Part shown: positions 28,210-62,519 of the stretch, in pieces
Numbering within the stretch: position 1 is the stretch's first letter
How the letters are laid out: every line of letters begins with the position of its first letter
Notes under the pieces: model-generated
Database searches by the model: none
Told to the model about the DNA's origin: nothing
Seen by the model: the letters and a program-made list of their open reading frames with translations, nothing else
Position numbers and translations under genes: made by a program
IMG/VR virus record: IMGVR_UViG_3300016471_001035
Location: 32,001 to 96,000 of that record
Source: a virus
Length of the DNA stretch: 64,000 nucleotides
Reading direction: 5' to 3' (one strand)

Positions 28210-28863
28210 ATGTTTAAGAAGAAGTTAGCTTTTGCAAATCATAATCACCCTCATACTCAAGAAGAAAGAGAACAAATAATTGAACGGGCAGCTAAAGCAT
28301 ATGAAGCTTACATGGATGCTTTAGGATATGATTGGAGAAACGATCCTAATAGTGATAATACCCCGCATAGAGTTGCTAAGGCGTTTGTAGAGGATTTTGC
28401 TTGGGGCTGCTATAGTAATCCACCTAAAGTAACAGCTTTTGATAATGTAGATAAGTATGATGGAATTGTAGCGCAGACTAATATTAAAGTTACTTCACTT
28501 TGCTCGCATCACCATGCTCCATTTATGGGGTTTGCTCATGTCGCATATATACCTTCTAAGGATGGAAAGGTCATTGGTCTAAGTAAGCTCAATCGAATTG
28601 TTGATTGGTTTGCTCGCCGTCCGCAGGTTCAAGAAAACCTTACAATGCAGATTCACAAGTATATTGATGAGGTCTGTGAAAAGAATAAGGGTGTTGCCGT
28701 AATGATTGAAGCCGCACATACTTGTTGTTCAAATCGTGGTATTAGACATGATTCAACAATGCGTACCGCTAGAATGTCCGGTGCATTTTTAGATGATAAA
28801 GATAATTCTAGAAACGAGTTTTATAAGTTCATTGAGTTTGCGCAAAATAGAAAACTTATTTAA
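28210..28863 (+). CDS. folE: GTP cyclohydrolase I
   Basis: TPHRVAK, SLCSHHHAPF, VIGLSKLNR, RRPQVQE, HTCCSNRG. Confidence 0.96.
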   Translation: MFKKKLAFANHNHPHTQEEREQIIERAAKAYEAYMDALGYDWRNDPNSDNTPHRVAKAFVEDFAWGCYSNPPKVTAFDNVDKYDGIVAQTNIKVTSLCSHHHAPFMGFAHVAYIPSKDGKVIGLSKLNRIVDWFARRPQVQENLTMQIHKYIDEVCEKNKGVAVMIEAAHTCCSNRGIRHDSTMRTARMSGAFLDDKDNSRNEFYKFIEFAQNRKLI

Positions 28864-45686: not shown

Positions 45687-46805
45687 ATGAGTAAAGACCT
45701 TAATAAAATATTTGCGTCACTAGATAAGCTTAATAGCGAAGCTTCTTTTTTAAACGAAAATGCACTTAGTAAAGTTGATGAGTGGTTTGATACTGGATGC
45801 TATGCTCTTAACGCTATTCTTGGCGGGAGTTGTCGCAACGGTGGCGTACCTAAGGGAAGAATAACAGGATTCTCTGGACCTAGTCAAACTGGTAAGACTT
45901 TTATTGTAAATAAGATTTTAGCTACTGCTCAAAAAAAAGGTATTACTCCCGTTATATTTGATACTGAAATAGCTATTGATGAAAATAGTACAAAAGGTGT
46001 AGGTTTGGATCCCGAAAATGTAAAATATGTGCCTGTTGACACCATTGATCAGTGTCGTAATCAAGTTAGTGCACTACTCGATAGTATTATAGAAAATGAT
46101 GCTAGAGGTAAATTTATACTTAGTATTGACAGTTTAGGCAATCTTGCTTCACAGAAAGAGCTCGATGACGTAGCTAAAGATAAATCTGCAGCGGATATGG
46201 GTCTTCGTGCAAAGTCTTTAAAGAGTATGTTTCGCACTTTAACCTTTAAGGCTGCAAAGGCTGGCGTTACAATTCTTTTTACCAATCATACGTATGATGA
46301 TCCAGCTGCAATGTTCCCAAGTCTTGTGAAGAATCAAGCCGGTGGCTCAGGCCCTGTATATATGGCAAGTATACTTGTACAGCTTGCCAAGCGCCACGAG
46401 AAGGAGGGCGAAGGTGATTCTATGGATGTAGAGGACAAGAAGCTAGCAGAAGCCAATAAATACAGCGGTACAACACTTCGTGCATTGACTGTAAAGAATC
46501 GCTTCTTGCCTCCGTTTTTAGAGACTGAAATGTATCTTTCTTTTAAAACCGGTCTTAACAAGTACAGTGGATTGCTTGGTATGGCTGCAGTGAGAGGTAT
46601 CGTTGAACAAAACGGTGCCACATACACAGTGGGGATTACAAGCGGTAAGTACAAGAAGGGTGATAAACTAGGGTATGCAAAGACTTTTGCAAAAGATCCT
46701 GCTTTCTACGAGGAATTTATTATTCCTGAGTTAGATAAGAGATTAATAGAGGAATACAAATATAATGCCAACGAAGAAGGTAAAGAAGAAGAACCTATCG
46801 AGTAG
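45687..46805 (+). CDS. uvsX: RecA-like recombinase UvsX
   Basis: DTGCYALN, GPSQTGKT, FDTE, IDSLG, ADMG, TNHTY, KNRF. Confidence 0.95.
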   Translation: MSKDLNKIFASLDKLNSEASFLNENALSKVDEWFDTGCYALNAILGGSCRNGGVPKGRITGFSGPSQTGKTFIVNKILATAQKKGITPVIFDTEIAIDENSTKGVGLDPENVKYVPVDTIDQCRNQVSALLDSIIENDARGKFILSIDSLGNLASQKELDDVAKDKSAADMGLRAKSLKSMFRTLTFKAAKAGVTILFTNHTYDDPAAMFPSLVKNQAGGSGPVYMASILVQLAKRHEKEGEGDSMDVEDKKLAEANKYSGTTLRALTVKNRFLPPFLETEMYLSFKTGLNKYSGLLGMAAVRGIVEQNGATYTVGITSGKYKKGDKLGYAKTFAKDPAFYEEFIIPELDKRLIEEYKYNANEEGKEEEPIE

Positions 46806-47535
46806 GGCTGTAGTCCCTGTTAGTGGTGGCATGGACAGCTCAGTACTGCTTCATTTAGCAGCTGAACGGTATGATAAGATAGTTGCTGTAAGCTTTGCAT
46901 ATGGTCAAAAGCACGGGGTAGAAATAATTTATGCTACACGACAGCTAGGCCAAGTACTTAAAAAAGTGGGCGAAAAAAATATAGTACATAAAATTATTAA
47001 TTTACCGTTTTTTAAGGATGTTTGTCAGGTTTCTTCACTTCTTAACAATAAGATTGCAGTAGCTAAAGCCAAGGACGTAATGGGAGATCCGCAAACAGTA
47101 AACTATGTACCTTACAGAAATACGATGCTGCTAAGTATTGCATTAGCAATAGCTGAAAACTGCGGTGCTTCTACTGTTTTTCATGGTGCTGCGCAGGCTG
47201 ATAGTGTTGCGGGATTTTGGGATGGGAGTGAGGAATTTTTAGAACAAATTAACAAACTTTCATCACTCAATAGACGGAACAAGATAACCGTTCAAGCTCC
47301 TTTAATCAAAAAATCTAAATCAGATATTATTAAATTAGGTATAAAGTTGGGAGTAGATTTTAGTCAAACATGGACTTGTTATGAGGGCGGAGAACAGGCC
47401 TGCGGTGAATGTACTGCGTGTTCTTTGAGAATAAAAGGCTTTATTGACGCTGGTTATATAGACCCGGTAAATTATAAAACATTAATACCTTGGGAAAAAT
47501 ATAAGTGTAAGTTAATCTATAACTCTGCAAAATAA
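46765..47535 (+). CDS. queC: 7-cyano-7-deazaguanine synthase
   Basis: SGGMDS, YGQKH, YVPYRN, TWTCYEG..ACGECTACSLR. Confidence 0.95.
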   Translation: MPTKKVKKKNLSSRAVVPVSGGMDSSVLLHLAAERYDKIVAVSFAYGQKHGVEIIYATRQLGQVLKKVGEKNIVHKIINLPFFKDVCQVSSLLNNKIAVAKAKDVMGDPQTVNYVPYRNTMLLSIALAIAENCGASTVFHGAAQADSVAGFWDGSEEFLEQINKLSSLNRRNKITVQAPLIKKSKSDIIKLGIKLGVDFSQTWTCYEGGEQACGECTACSLRIKGFIDAGYIDPVNYKTLIPWEKYKCKLIYNSAK

Positions 47536-48851: not shown

Positions 48852-49754
48852 TTAAGCAGTACTGTACTTGTCAAATTCGTCGAAGCTTCTTCCACCTTTA
48901 TAACCTAGCTCTCTTGCGATTGAAGTAGGCTCGTCTTCTTCAGGATATTCTTCTACCGTTTCCACTTCACCGGTACCTTCGCCTTCTTTTTTCTCAGATG
49001 AAGGTGAAAAACTATTTTTAAATTTTAATGAATCAATAAAGTCCTGTACCATTTCGCTGTCTTTAGCCATCTTTTCATCATAGGCGCGAATAATAGCCTC
49101 TTCTACTTCTTTTTTAAGCTCAGGTGAATTATAAATATCGCTACCACTAGATACAGTTATTTCATCAGGCAATTCATTAAAGATTGGCATCCATTCTTTA
49201 ATAAATCTAACATCGTTTTTTATAAAGGTATTTGTTGTAGAAGCTGGTGTTGCAGGTGATGTACCAGGTGCACCGGGAGCAACTACTTTCTTACCCTCTA
49301 CCCCAGAGGTAACAGCTTGCTTGACTTGTGCTGGGCTAGCTGCTGCACCACCTTCTACATCTACTCTTAAAACGTTTAACAAATTGTCAACTATTCTAGC
49401 AGTGTATCTAGCTTCAGTACCGCCGAGTTTAAGTTCGTTTTTAATTAAATTTTCTAAATCTGTTCTAAATTTCATCTTAGATCCCGGATAATAAAGCTTA
49501 TATTCTTTACCATCTATAGTATGAATTGCGGGTTTAAAGAGCTTTGTCTGTATTGCTTGAAGTAAACGATTTGCAATTTCTGCTTTTGTTTTACCTTCCT
49601 TTGCAGCTGTTTTACCAATACCATACCCCTTGCCAGGCGCTTTTTCAATATCACCGGTATATCCTAGCTCGTCAGCATATATAGGTGCTTCTTTTAAAAC
49701 CCTAGGTTTTTTAGTTAAATAAGCTTCGAAAATAAGCTTTGTATCTTTGTTCAT
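48852..49754 (-). CDS. hypothetical late protein
   Basis: MNKDTKLIFEAY; AATAAATA upstream. Confidence 0.75.
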   Translation of the reverse strand: MNKDTKLIFEAYLTKKPRVLKEAPIYADELGYTGDIEKAPGKGYGIGKTAAKEGKTKAEIANRLLQAIQTKLFKPAIHTIDGKEYKLYYPGSKMKFRTDLENLIKNELKLGGTEARYTARIVDNLLNVLRVDVEGGAAASPAQVKQAVTSGVEGKKVVAPGAPGTSPATPASTTNTFIKNDVRFIKEWMPIFNELPDEITVSSGSDIYNSPELKKEVEEAIIRAYDEKMAKDSEMVQDFIDSLKFKNSFSPSSEKKEGEGTGEVETVEEYPEEDEPTSIARELGYKGGRSFDEFDKYSTA

Positions 49755-49755
49755 C

Positions 49756-49795
49756 TTGAATTATTTATTCTTTATATTATAATAAATCAGGAGGT
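49756..49795 (+). promoter_or_regulatory. sigma70-type promoter plus strong Shine-Dalgarno site
   Basis: TTGAAT(49756)-N16-TATAAT(49778)-AAATC-AGGAGGT(49789-49795)-N7-ATT. Confidence 0.8.
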
Positions 49796-49802
49796 TATAG
49801 CT

Positions 49803-50486
49803 ATTTGCGGTATATTTGGTTCTAAAGACTTTACAACTTATGTAAAGCTTTATAAGAGCAACAAGAAACGTGGTACGTTTTCTTACGGTGGTCTACTGAT
49901 CGGCTCACATATTCACGCTGTTCTCAAGACACCAGGCACTGCCAACCTATCCAATAAGCTAGTTATAGAGTACGGTAAAAAGAGGAGAAACATTACAGAT
50001 TTTGATGTTTTTTTAGGACACACTCAAGCCCCTACATCTGAAAAAAGAACATTTTCACCAAATACATCTCATCCTTTTCAACATAAAGAATGGTTAATTG
50101 CACATAACGGGGTTTTAACAAACGATAAGGAATTAAAAAAGCTTATTAAAGATAAAAAATCTTATAACGTTGTAGATTCATCTGTTATTGCACCGCTTAT
50201 AGCTATGTTTGTTAAAGAGCTAGATGATGAGGTTGCAGGTGTTTGCAAAGCACTATCGCTACTTAAAGGTACGTTTGGCCTTTGGATATATAATCAAAAA
50301 ACTGGTAATATTTTTCTCGCACGATCCGGCAGTACAGTATTCGCAGATTTTCTATCAAACGACTTTTCTTCTTTAAAGGAAAGCGGGTTTGTCCCTCTTG
50401 ACGAAGGTACACTATACCTATTAACTAAGGAAGGGTTAACCTCCGTAGGCGTATTTAAGACTAACTCTCCGTTTTTTACACAATGA
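49803..50486 (+). CDS. class-II (Ntn) glutamine amidotransferase with ATT start codon
   Basis: ATT-TGC-GGT-ATA-TTT-GGT = (M)CGIFG; open frame through GHTQAPT, HPF, HNG, VDS into the track ORF at 50205 (offset 402 nt); 227 aa. Confidence 0.88.
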   Translation: MCGIFGSKDFTTYVKLYKSNKKRGTFSYGGLLIGSHIHAVLKTPGTANLSNKLVIEYGKKRRNITDFDVFLGHTQAPTSEKRTFSPNTSHPFQHKEWLIAHNGVLTNDKELKKLIKDKKSYNVVDSSVIAPLIAMFVKELDDEVAGVCKALSLLKGTFGLWIYNQKTGNIFLARSGSTVFADFLSNDFSSLKESGFVPLDEGTLYLLTKEGLTSVGVFKTNSPFFTQ

Positions 50487-51175
50487 AAACAGCATTTTAT
50501 TTTTGTACAAGAAATTCTAAAGCGCAAGATACTTTTGCATTTAAATCTCTTCAAAGAATTAAACTAGCTACTCTATGGGAGTTTACTATAATTTATAAGG
50601 AAAATAATAATGACGGATTAAGCTTAAATTATAATAGTGTTTTAGAAAAGCATGGTAAAGATTATGATAACATAGTTTTTATACACGATGATGTTTATAT
50701 TGACGATCTTGGAGTGGTAAATAAGCTAGAAAAAGCTCATAATGATTTTGATATTGTAGGTCTTGCTGGGGGGTTAAATCCTGAAATTAAAGCACCCGCC
50801 CTTTGGCATTTAATGTGTGGGGGGTTTAACAGCGGTAATTTGAGAGGAGCAGTAGCCCATAAATTTAATAATGATCAAATTTTTATGACCAATTTTGGCC
50901 CCACACCCGCTAGAGTTGCTATTTTAGATGGACTATTCCTAAGCGTTAAAACCGAATGTTTTTTAAAAAAGGAATTTAAATTTAATGAAAATTATAACTT
51001 CCATCATTATGATATTGCCACCTGTATTGATGCTAATAAAAACAAATTAAAGTTAGGGGTCGTCCCTATATGGGTAGTACATAATTCACCCGGTCTTCTT
51101 AATATCAACGATGCTACATTTAGCGCTAGTCAATCTATATTTTTAAGAGAGTATAGCAGTATTGATTCTGTATAA
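50483..51175 (+). CDS. GT-A glycosyltransferase-like protein
   Basis: SLNYN, FIHDDV, VGLAG, ILDGLFL, FHHYDI; ATGA-coupled to the amidotransferase. Confidence 0.8.
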   Translation: MKTAFYFCTRNSKAQDTFAFKSLQRIKLATLWEFTIIYKENNNDGLSLNYNSVLEKHGKDYDNIVFIHDDVYIDDLGVVNKLEKAHNDFDIVGLAGGLNPEIKAPALWHLMCGGFNSGNLRGAVAHKFNNDQIFMTNFGPTPARVAILDGLFLSVKTECFLKKEFKFNENYNFHHYDIATCIDANKNKLKLGVVPIWVVHNSPGLLNINDATFSASQSIFLREYSSIDSV

Positions 51176-52549: not shown

Positions 52550-52846
52550 TTGTTGAATGTGAAAGGTTACGATCCTTCTGAGCAATTAACAGATTATGAA
52601 CAAACTCATTTGTTTTTATCTTTCTGTTCGTTTGTAACACTCACTAATACAAAAAAATTAAATCTTGCTAATGTTTTTATTACCCTTCTTAAGAATAAAG
52701 AATTTAGAGAGATTTTTAAAATTTATTGTGATTTAAAAAATGATTTTTCAGCTGTAAAATTTTTCTTGCAATTTGATTCAAGCTTGTATAAAAGTAAATA
52801 TATAATGAAATTTTTAAACTCAAATAAAAAGGCGCTTTTCCTATGA
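52550..52846 (+). CDS. hypothetical protein (start uncertain)
   Basis: 98-aa ORF ATGA-coupled to bS21. Confidence 0.65.
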   Translation: MLNVKGYDPSEQLTDYEQTHLFLSFCSFVTLTNTKKLNLANVFITLLKNKEFREIFKIYCDLKNDFSAVKFFLQFDSSLYKSKYIMKFLNSNKKALFL

Positions 52847-53055
52847 GCAATATTGTTAATGCTTCTGTAACTTTAGATAAGAAGAAATGTACAGATAAAG
52901 TTTATTTTGATAAAGCCTACAAAAGGTTTGCAAGAGAATTTTTAAGGTCGGGTGTGTTAGAGGATTTAAGATTTAAAAGGTGTTATTATAAACCAAGCGT
53001 GTTGCGTAAGTTAAAAAAGCAAGTTGCAAGACAGAAGTGGAAGTTTTACAATTGA
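52843..53055 (+). CDS. rpsU: phage-encoded ribosomal protein bS21 homologue
   Basis: FDKAYKRF.R...SGVLEDLR.KRCYYKPSVLRK matches the bS21 signature (ALRRFKR..GVL.E.R.R..YEKPS..R). Confidence 0.8.
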   Translation: MSNIVNASVTLDKKKCTDKVYFDKAYKRFAREFLRSGVLEDLRFKRCYYKPSVLRKLKKQVARQKWKFYN

Positions 53056-61059: not shown

Positions 61060-61791
61060 TTACCATTCTAAAATAACACACCCACCTACACCGCTACCGC
61101 TGTTTGCAGATCCGCCAAAACCAAAATTAGAAAATATTTTTCCAGGTAAATTATTTGTACCGTTTAAGATTATTATTCCACCTGATCCGCTACCACCACC
61201 ACCCTGTCCCCCACTGCCTCCAGCAGAATTGTTACCACAATTTTTAAATGCTCCTCCACCGCCATTTCCGCCTGTAGCTACTATGCTGCCTACTGATGTA
61301 GATCCTCCTACTTGACCAGCACCTGCAGTAACGCCACAACCCGTGCTTCCACCACCGCCACCGCCATTTCCAATAGAAATTGATAGCTGTTGCCCAGGTG
61401 TTACATCTAAAATACCTAAACAGCATCCACCCCCACCACCAGCTCCGCCTCCATATGCTCCATAGCTAGAGGATGCACCTCCCCCTGCACCGCCCCCACC
61501 ACCTATACATGTAACTTTTAATTTTGTTATATTAGAAGGTACAGTAAATGTACTGGATGAGGTAAATAGCTGTAAGCCGCTAAACGTAGAAAAAGATGGT
61601 TTATTTAACAAATCGGTGTAACTACCAGTTGTCGCAACAGTAGCTAATGTAGGCTTGTTGGCTATATTAGTATAATCTACTTGTAAAGCTGATAATTGTG
61701 CTTTACCGGTTGTACTTCCATTTGATATAGGGACAACCAGAGAGCCTTGAGGAGTTATATCATTTAATTGAGATATAGTTATATCAGCCAT
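61060..61791 (-). CDS. glycine-rich tail fibre-like protein
   Basis: MADITISQL, LATVATTGSYTDL.NKP, FTVPSNITKLKVTCIGGGGG, GGCVILEW. Confidence 0.8.
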   Translation of the reverse strand: MADITISQLNDITPQGSLVVPISNGSTTGKAQLSALQVDYTNIANKPTLATVATTGSYTDLLNKPSFSTFSGLQLFTSSSTFTVPSNITKLKVTCIGGGGGAGGGASSSYGAYGGGAGGGGGCCLGILDVTPGQQLSISIGNGGGGGGSTGCGVTAGAGQVGGSTSVGSIVATGGNGGGGAFKNCGNNSAGGSGGQGGGGSGSGGIIILNGTNNLPGKIFSNFGFGGSANSGSGVGGCVILEW

Positions 61792-62519
61792 TATTGATAA
61801 CCTCCATATACATCTGAATAATCTGTTTTGCTATAGTCAAAAACATTTTTTGATGCTACATTGACATCGTAGCTATAAGGCTTTTGTGCTCCTGAAGCTG
61901 TAGGCGACGTGGTGTCATCAAATACTTGATCATTTTGCGCTTCTGGCGTTACTCCAGGTTCAAACGAGTATTCGAATCTCTTAGCTTTTATCAACCAAAC
62001 ATAATGACCTGCAAGAGGATTAATTTGTGCTATATCTTGATCTAATCTTTGGGTAATTTCATATATATTACCGTTTCTACCCCCCGGCCTATCATTACCA
62101 TATTCGGTTAATTGAAAAAGATCGCCAGCTTTAGGTTCTGCACCCTGCCCAAAAGTAGCATAAAACGCGCTTATATGAACAAATGCAGTGACTTCGTCAT
62201 CTGATACTAAGCCAAACTTACTTAAAAGCAATGCATTTTCATTTAAATTAATAGCTATAATTAAATCTTGAGGAGGAGAGTATTGTTGTGTTGGCTGCTC
62301 TCCGTAAAGCATGTCTGCACTTAATGTACTAGTATTATTAACTATATAACCAACTTTCTGTCCATAAAGATTAATTTGTTCTCTCCAGTAATTAGATATA
62401 ATGTTTCTTTCGTCTGTATTTTTACTTTTATCTGTAAATCTAAAACAAGTATTATCTACAAAAAAGAAAGGGTATGTCTTAGACTGTTCTAGATTACCTG
62501 TATAATATTCTGTAGACAT
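61791..62519 (-). CDS. gp14: neck protein gp14-like
   Basis: EQINLYGQ, DMLYGE, LLSKFGL, PKAGDL, YEIT, FEYS. Confidence 0.8.
   Translation of the reverse strand: MSTEYYTGNLEQSKTYPFFFVDNTCFRFTDKSKNTDERNIISNYWREQINLYGQKVGYIVNNTSTLSADMLYGEQPTQQYSPPQDLIIAINLNENALLLSKFGLVSDDEVTAFVHISAFYATFGQGAEPKAGDLFQLTEYGNDRPGGRNGNIYEITQRLDQDIAQINPLAGHYVWLIKAKRFEYSFEPGVTPEAQNDQVFDDTTSPTASGAQKPYSYDVNVASKNVFDYSKTDYSDVYGGYQ

Follow-up and report, generated by a model that had tools for sequence, protein, structure and literature searches.

The stretch of DNA analysed here (the window) comprises 64,000 nucleotides of IMG/VR virus record IMGVR_UViG_3300016471_001035, a 139,594-bp genome of 33.5% GC, estimated to be 66% complete, that belongs to an uncultured freshwater T4-like phage. 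It carries a gene for a class-II, or N-terminal nucleophile (Ntn), glutamine amidotransferase, here called Gat, whose predicted start codon is ATT and lies behind a Shine-Dalgarno (SD) sequence, in a phage lineage that does without such sequences elsewhere. The start region is laid out as follows (window coordinates).

49756..49761, plus strand: −35 hexamer TTGAAT of an early, sigma-70-like promoter of the unit formed by Gat and a downstream glycosyltransferase gene (GT); with 10 of 12 matches it is the best promoter of the region, and it is kept in nearly all relatives
16 nt: spacer between the −35 and −10 hexamers
49778..49783, plus strand: −10 hexamer TATAAT, followed by AAATC (N5) before the SD
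49789..49795, plus strand: Shine-Dalgarno sequence AGGAGGT, 7 nt (TATAGCT) ahead of the start codon
49803..49805, plus strand: ATT start codon (AUU, read by initiator tRNA), as assigned from the sequence
49806..49808, plus strand: TGC (Cys), the predicted N-terminal nucleophile, followed by GGT ATA TTT GGT
49806..50486, plus strand: body of Gat, class-II (Ntn) glutamine amidotransferase, 227 amino acids counting the initiator, ending in TGA at 50484-50486

These elements had been read by an initial annotation of the stretch as TTGAAT-N16-TATAAT followed by AGGAGGT-N7-ATT-TGC-GGT-ATA-TTT-GGT, and all of them lie where it had put them. Its further observation that no ATG, GTG or TTG occurs in frame between the promoter and the Cys also stands: the frame has been open since a stop codon at about 49716, and the earliest such codon, at 50205, would leave a protein of 93 amino acids. 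In the whole 139.6-kb genome this is the sole frame with a long, open 5′ part that is devoid of a start codon and lies in DNA uncovered by other genes. In class-II amidotransferases such as GlmS, PurF and AsnB, the mature protein has to begin with the Cys, so the start is fixed one codon upstream, at the ATT. This argument had already been made in the initial annotation, and it is supported by the family alignment, in which C2 is invariant, and by the retention of the ATT in relatives; translation of Gat is accordingly predicted to begin at ATT 49803.

To place the start in its family context, DNA of 240 related loci from IMG/VR and JGI metagenomes was reduced to 106 unique start regions. All 106 encode the N-terminal sequence CGIFG. 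The codon before the Cys is ATT in 58 of them and ATG in the other 48; GTG, TTG, ATA and ATC were not found as the Gat start in any. The first codons of the gene vary synonymously at their third positions (TGC/TGT, GGT/GGC/GGA, ATA/ATT/ATC), and the start ATT never turns into ATA or ATC. An in-frame stop lies one codon 5′ of the ATT in two relatives (L008 and L011) and two codons 5′ in two others (L021 and L030), so that no alternative start is possible there. A phylogenetically conserved AUU or AUC start, the feature that marks genes of the infC type, is thus found in this family, in 58 unique ATT loci with no other non-ATG codon.

Automated annotation conceals this pattern. Gene callers begin the ATT-type homologues at internal ATG, GTG or TTG codons, giving proteins of 174-214 amino acids that are shortened by 13-50 residues and have lost the catalytic Cys, whereas distant homologues start with MCGIFGS; the Gat family is systematically mis-annotated in public metagenome and protein catalogues. 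The shortened calls could be taken as a sign that the ATT is an artefact, that is, a misassembled start codon, a pseudogene, or a gene that uses another start codon and carries an N-terminal propeptide, and two relatives (L076 and L080) do have an in-frame ATG 12 codons upstream. That ATG is missing, however, from other relatives that bear the same upstream cassette (described below), the N-terminal 134 codons are kept at the protein level amid synonymous changes, and the in-frame stops just ahead of the ATT in relatives argue against a longer product. The ATG/ATT sequence error that the initial annotation had raised is answered by the identical ATT in 58 unique loci from many samples; the assembled contig of the probable source run shows the same bases at a depth of 12, which is not independent evidence. 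An artefact or dead gene has next to no chance of being the right explanation, and sequencing error or pseudogene is excluded for practical purposes.

The two start codons are accompanied by different upstream signals. In 57 of the 58 ATT loci, GGAGG or AGGAGG ends 8-10 nt before the ATT; the initial annotation had proposed to look in homologues for this combination of the same SD with a non-ATG start. The exception, L244 (JGI contig Ga0247844_1000534), has a cassette-type upstream region in which the purine tract and SD have decayed to AGAAGGGATGGG, and it retains the ATT; it may be an allele that is losing expression. Among the ATG loci, 44 of 48 have no SD-like motif, and the most that the remaining four show is GAGG, GAGGAG or GGAGG at a distance of 11-15 nt. 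An ATG after a well-spaced, strong SD does not occur in any of the 106 relatives. The −10 hexamer of the ATG loci ends 6-10 nt before the ATG, which predicts a leader of 0 to about 4 nt. For those ATT loci that are promoter-proximal, it is the first G of GGAGG that follows the −10 hexamer at 4-7 nt (mode 6), and this G occupies the position that a leaderless ATG would take.

Within the clade to which the window belongs, whose proteins are approximately 70-85% identical to the window's Gat, GGAGG and ATT are invariant, whereas the nucleotides that separate the SD from the ATT change freely. A maximum-likelihood tree of the 106 Gat proteins contains at least nine changes between the ATT and ATG states. 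In seven independent pairs on well-supported branches, the SD changed in the same direction as the start codon six times and in the opposite direction never (sign test p = 0.031), and the start type differs even between Gat proteins that are 97% identical. Several distinct SD-spacer-ATT contexts were found, one of which (the L182 type) resembles the leaderless L186 type with the addition of about 11 nt that include GGAGGT.

This association stands out against the rest of the genome. An SD-like motif is lacking in 148 of the 172 genes called as open reading frames (ORFs), compared with 151 expected at random. The claim of the initial annotation that Gat has the only full SD needs a qualification: AGGAGG at 3-13 nt before a gene start is confined to Gat, but the minus-strand gene 61060-61791 has the shorter GGAGGT. 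That motif lies 9 nt before the ATG (window 61791-61810), within the coding end of the upstream gene, and is the only other well-placed SD-like 6-mer of the genome. In place of SD sequences, many genes have a promoter at a fixed distance. Genome-wide, TATAAT ends exactly 6 nt before 14-19 gene starts, TTGAnn begins 34 nt before 12 starts, and a T4-late-like TAAATA ends 5-6 nt before 39 starts; within the window, the starts at 28210, 42669, 45288, 51196, 53724 and 55007 are examples of this leaderless layout. Approximately half of same-strand neighbours overlap or sit no more than 10 nt apart. This geometry, the chance-level frequency of SD motifs and the tight packing of neighbours together indicate that the phage relies on leaderless first genes, with coupled genes downstream of them.

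When the genome's own −10-N6-start geometry is applied to the Gat promoter, the predicted transcription start (+1) falls at 49790, the first G of GGAGG, and the Gat mRNA would open with its SD, as the initial annotation had supposed. In the predicted fold of the region (49790-49869, z = −1.5) the SD is unpaired and accessible, and a structured leader or hairpin of the kind seen in phage phiEco32 was rejected on these grounds. Long-range pairing of the SD with an ACCTCC at window position 50440 was attributed to chance, since the complementary 8-mer is lost in relatives.

Four further features of the neighbourhood bear on how Gat is interpreted.

49762..49767, minus strand: TAAATA, a T4-late-type promoter, 7 nt before the ATG (49754-49752) of a divergent gene at 48852-49754 (the usual gap in this genome being 5-6 nt, as above)
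50483..51175, plus strand: glycosyltransferase GT (Glyco_tranf_2_5), whose ATG overlaps the Gat stop codon (ATGA) and which is without a promoter or SD of its own
46765..47535, plus strand: QueC (preQ0 synthase family; Pfam QueC, 6.6e-56), 2.3 kb upstream of Gat
52843..53055, plus strand: phage ribosomal protein bS21, 70 amino acids (PF01165, 40.2 bits), in the replication gene block and with a 4-nt overlap with the preceding ORF

The divergent gene and the ATT are 48 nt apart in the window. Window 49752-49783 consists of back-to-back promoters, the early −35 hexamer of Gat abutting the minus-strand TAAATA, and the presence of this late promoter accounts for a block of about 30 nt (CAT-CTTGAAT-TATTTA-TTC) that is more conserved than nearby coding DNA. 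The start of queC overlaps the end of a UvsX/RecA-like gene by 41 nt (window 46765-46805). The ATGA overlap bears out the coupling of Gat to GT described by the initial annotation, and in each of the 78 loci examined for it, GT is the gene that immediately follows Gat.

T4-type replication genes (PolB, UvsX, gp32, a DnaB-like helicase and Mre11/Rad50) are present in the genome; the PolB shares only about 30% identity with its counterpart in any cultured T4-like phage. No DNA similarity to known phages was found, and a protein tblastn search with Gat returned only four weak matches to Listeria-phage contigs. The bS21 gene occurs in about half of the related phages; the searches run turned up no close relative of it in bacteria or cultured phages. 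As a source of host clues, bS21 gave no match in the phage collection, two scans of genome contigs were empty, and the Atlas protein clusters were viral only, with no pointer to a host. The early promoters have the form TTGAnn-N16/17-TATAAT and are not of the Bacteroidia type.

The Gat protein matches the Pfam families GATase_6 (3.5e-10) and GATase_7 (8.9e-07), and a profile of the Gat family searched against the PDB finds the glutaminase domain of Escherichia coli GlmS (3.2e-11). An AlphaFold2 (AF2) model (pLDDT 89.1, pTM 0.88) has the four-layer alpha-beta-beta-alpha fold of Ntn enzymes; its best Foldseek match is 1xff, the GlmS glutaminase domain (TM 0.74, E 7e-12, over the whole domain), and PurF and EgtC come next. 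When the family profile is aligned with 1xff, AHNGV is paired with VHNGI, which holds the oxyanion Asn-Gly (GlmS N98-G99), and EVDSS with ETDTE, which holds the Asp responsible for binding the amino group of the substrate (GlmS D123); the corresponding N102, G103 and D125 are invariant in the Gat family. Another invariant Gat motif, GHTQAPTS (Q75; window 50011-50034), resembles GHTRWATH of GlmS, in which R73 binds the glutamine carboxylate, although this is a likeness of motifs only, in a stretch that the HMM alignment does not cover. Gln thus seems to replace, in the Gat family, the carboxylate-binding Arg shared by GlmS (Arg73) and PurF, and the substrate of Gat may differ from free glutamine. 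On the strength of the model and these matches, Gat is predicted to be a stand-alone class-II (Ntn) glutaminase with a GlmS-like fold. No fused forms of Gat were found among longer homologous proteins, which is weak evidence for the stand-alone state.

A possible acceptor of the ammonia that such an enzyme would release is QueC. Prediction of a complex of Gat with QueC gave an ipSAE of 0.47, compared with 0.00 for the best control, with runs agreeing on at least 92% of contacts and a partner pLDDT of at least 87. In calibration, 58 of 80 solved complexes attained the pass mark of this tool, as did 2 of 110 mismatched pairs; at scores of 0.60 or below, only 7 of the 80 solved complexes passed, but both of the passing mismatches did. 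In addition, the C-terminal part of PHROG 10428 matches QueC and its N-terminal part matches Gat weakly (3.6e-4). These results weakly support QueC as a candidate ammonia-accepting partner, and a Gat-QueC partnership would place Gat in 7-deazaguanine chemistry. It is equally possible that Gat has a role in decorating modified DNA with sugars or amino groups, because it is GT, and not QueC, to which Gat is coupled in every relative examined.

We favour, with moderate confidence, the view that the Gat start is a compensated module of SD and AUU, the spread of which has been linked to an endonuclease in part of the family. The ancestral Gat layout would have been a leaderless or near-leaderless AUG, as for almost every transcript of this phage lineage, and in the window clade the SD+AUU module would have taken over from it; a perfect SD, placed right at the 5′ terminus of a leader of about 13 nt, would then direct initiation at AUU 49803. 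Leaderless mRNAs require AUG, lose activity about 2-fold with each added leader nucleotide and are inhibited by initiation factor 3 (IF3) (PMC8459731). Sub-optimal start codons are offset by a stronger SD (PMC5622118), and AUU, as in infC, is a non-canonical start that IF3 rejects (PMC5499595). A Gat mRNA that acquired a leader would lose the leaderless route and so need an SD, and a perfect SD would in turn be tempered by AUU. The weak start codon and the strong SD would offset each other and yield a modest level of Gat from an early promoter, and the level of GT would be set likewise through the ATGA overlap. Selection would thus favour a bounded, modest rate of initiation across three classes of allele: leaderless AUG; leader with weak SD and AUG; leader with strong SD and AUU. 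The module would be both heritable and exchangeable, forming in some relatives the right-hand end of a GIY-YIG (SegE-like) cassette between the −10 hexamer and the Gat start and, in the window phage, directly abutting the promoter with no endonuclease at the start. Translation would begin with formylmethionine (fMet), and removal of the Met would expose Cys1.

Several points weigh against this view. The transcript start, the use of AUU and the level of expression are all deduced from the sequence, and recognition of the SD by host ribosomes is assumed. The SD and the ATT are just 8 nt apart and could be transferred together as one block, for example in an endonuclease cassette, so that the "independent" switches may overstate selection on the pair. 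Low expression as the sole aim would predict GTG or TTG with weaker SDs as well, and there are none among the 106 relatives. Finally, the Gln in place of the glutamine-binding Arg73 leaves even the substrate of Gat uncertain.

The possibility of block transfer is raised by the relatives themselves. In L072, L073, L076, L080, L183 and others, a minus-strand ORF of 244 amino acids (L076:5223-5957) lies exactly between the −10 hexamer and the Gat start; the window has no endonuclease ORF at this position. The inserted ORF has a GIY-YIG motif and matches Pfam GIY-YIG (3.7e-4), SegE_GIY-YIG (3.7e-3) and NUMOD1 (8e-3), all just below the cut-offs (21.2 versus 22.6 bits). In every case the right end of the cassette reads caGGAGAGGAGGGTAACGCT-ATT and follows a TTGATA-N16-TATAAT promoter at a distance of about 50 nt, and the cassette flank supplies its own promoter plus an SD and ATT for Gat. 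The SD+ATT block could therefore be a selfish footprint, left or carried by a GIY-YIG endonuclease that inserts at the ATG-TGY-GGN start of Ntn amidotransferase genes; the ATT could be a cleavage-immune allele, and the endonuclease would have been lost in the window clade, with no adaptive role of the block in expression. It fits this explanation that at least five different Gat backgrounds share the same caGGAGAGGAGGGTAACGCT-ATT end, among them partners that are 97% identical to ATG alleles, and that Ntn amidotransferases starting with ATT are also found in unrelated phages (phiEco32 gene 83, ATT-TGT). Yet 48 of the 58 unique ATT loci, the whole window clade included, are without the endonuclease, and in them GGAGG and ATT are still invariant while the spacer is free. 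The start of the SD precisely matches the +1 of the promoter, and the SD-spacer-ATT contexts are of several kinds. A mere footprint accounts neither for this match nor for the lasting invariance of GGAGG and ATT where there is no endonuclease. A co-conversion tract by the start was looked for in pairs of loci with and without the homing endonuclease gene and was not seen, divergence being uniform along the gene. As a full account of the Gat start, a footprint of this kind strikes us as unlikely. The initial annotation had gone in another direction and proposed a sensor of initiation fidelity or anti-SD availability. In a refined form of that idea, AUU would place this lone leadered mRNA in the IF3-antagonised class to which leaderless mRNAs belong, and a shift in IF3 activity or in the availability of the anti-SD as the cell is taken over would be required for translation of Gat and GT, possibly with the help of the phage bS21. 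The exclusive use of ATT (58 of 58), to the neglect of GTG and TTG, which IF3 accepts, is in its favour, and IF3 does repress both AUU starts (infC; PMC5499595) and leaderless initiation (PMC8459731). A phage bS21 gene is found 2.4 kb downstream, and the only strong SD in an SD-free genome recalls rpsU of Flavobacterium, a lone SD-bearing mRNA that is favoured by ribosomes lacking bS21 (PMC9976891).

The distribution of bS21 does not follow the start type, however. Synteny ruled it out as a co-varying partner of the ATT type: it accompanies ATG-type loci (L038, L044, L046, L047, L050, L052 and L060) and is absent near many ATT-type ones (L064, L072, L076, L080 and L084-L086). The Gat SD of 7 bp also falls short of the extended helix needed in F. 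johnsoniae (below −13 kcal/mol, up to 13 bp; PMC9976891); the flanks of AGGAGGT add nothing to it, and the predicted 5′ end of the mRNA would cut it to GGAGGU. The early promoters are unlike those of Bacteroidia, neither an IF3 nor a peptide deformylase gene was found in the 139.6 kb of this record (estimated, as noted, to be 66% complete), and the intermediate alleles, with ATG and a weak or mis-spaced SD, resemble a tuning of strength. We consider the sensor improbable. The same degree of doubt attaches to the broader idea that the phage, nearly all of whose mRNAs are predicted to be leaderless, steers initiation toward IF3-antagonised, 70S-type starts, with leaderless AUG and SD-AUU as interchangeable "low-IF3" signals; were it true, this interchangeability would explain why the family toggles between just two states.

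E. coli has two AUU-started genes, infC (encoding IF3) and pcnB. Such starts are extremely rare, with about one AUG-to-AUU switch per 61,358 starts (PMC5622118), and the Gat family provides dozens of natural alleles. These alleles obey a simple rule: AUG is the start of leaderless messages and of those whose SD is weak or mis-spaced, and AUU is the start of messages with a strong 5′-terminal SD. They do so in a phage lineage that otherwise makes no use of SD sequences. The family is thus a natural experiment on the balance of translation starts. Its near-identical natural pairs make testable the trade-off among start-codon strength, SD strength and leader length, the coupling of AUU and leaderless initiation through IF3, and the reshaping of translation signals by homing endonucleases.

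A dimorphism of leaderless AUG and SD-AUU was not found described in the literature. In infC and pcnB, as in Gat, the AUU is conserved and not accidental, the initiation region matters, and the codon is discriminated against by IF3 (PMC5499595). Gat differs from both in being an amidotransferase with no autoregulatory loop, in combining AUU with a perfect 5′-terminal SD, and in belonging to a family that toggles with leaderless AUG. Another parallel is gene 83 of phiEco32 (NC_010324 54493-56523), the coding sequence of which is annotated from ATT-TGT(Cys)-GGC-ATC, behind a hairpin and AGGTGGA. Like Gat, it encodes a phage Ntn amidotransferase (GlmS-like) with an ATT start after a purine-rich SD; unlike Gat, it comes from an unrelated coliphage, encodes a two-domain protein of 677 amino acids, has a hairpin that abuts the SD, and has no leaderless counterpart layout. 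No BLAST-level similarity was found between gene 83 and the window's Gat.

Class-II Gat domains fused to QueC are known from archaea and phage 9g (PMC10516641). The window phage likewise encodes both a class-II Gat and QueC, but as separate genes 2.3 kb apart, with Gat coupled to GT. The GIY-YIG/NUMOD1 ORF at the Gat start of relatives, with a flank that recurs in several backgrounds, is similar to the free-standing homing endonucleases of the T4 seg/mob type, although the window itself is without an endonuclease and the relatives' ORF reaches a Pfam score of 21.2 bits against a cut-off of 22.6.

With respect to the translation signals themselves, Flavobacterium johnsoniae rpsU, a lone SD-bearing gene that is best translated by ribosomes without bS21 (PMC9976891), shares with Gat the presence of one strong SD in an SD-free gene set and of a bS21 gene in the system. 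Gat is set apart from it by an SD of 7 bp, by a bS21 that does not track ATT and SD, and by promoters that are not of the Bacteroidia type. A general precedent is the compensation between start codon and SD described by Belinky, Rogozin and Koonin (2017; PMC5622118), in which, as in Gat, a weaker start goes with a stronger SD. In that study the codons concerned were GUG and UUG and the trends were weak and statistical, whereas the Gat family presents at least nine switches between ATG and ATT, a near-perfect rule, and an alternative state that is leaderless.

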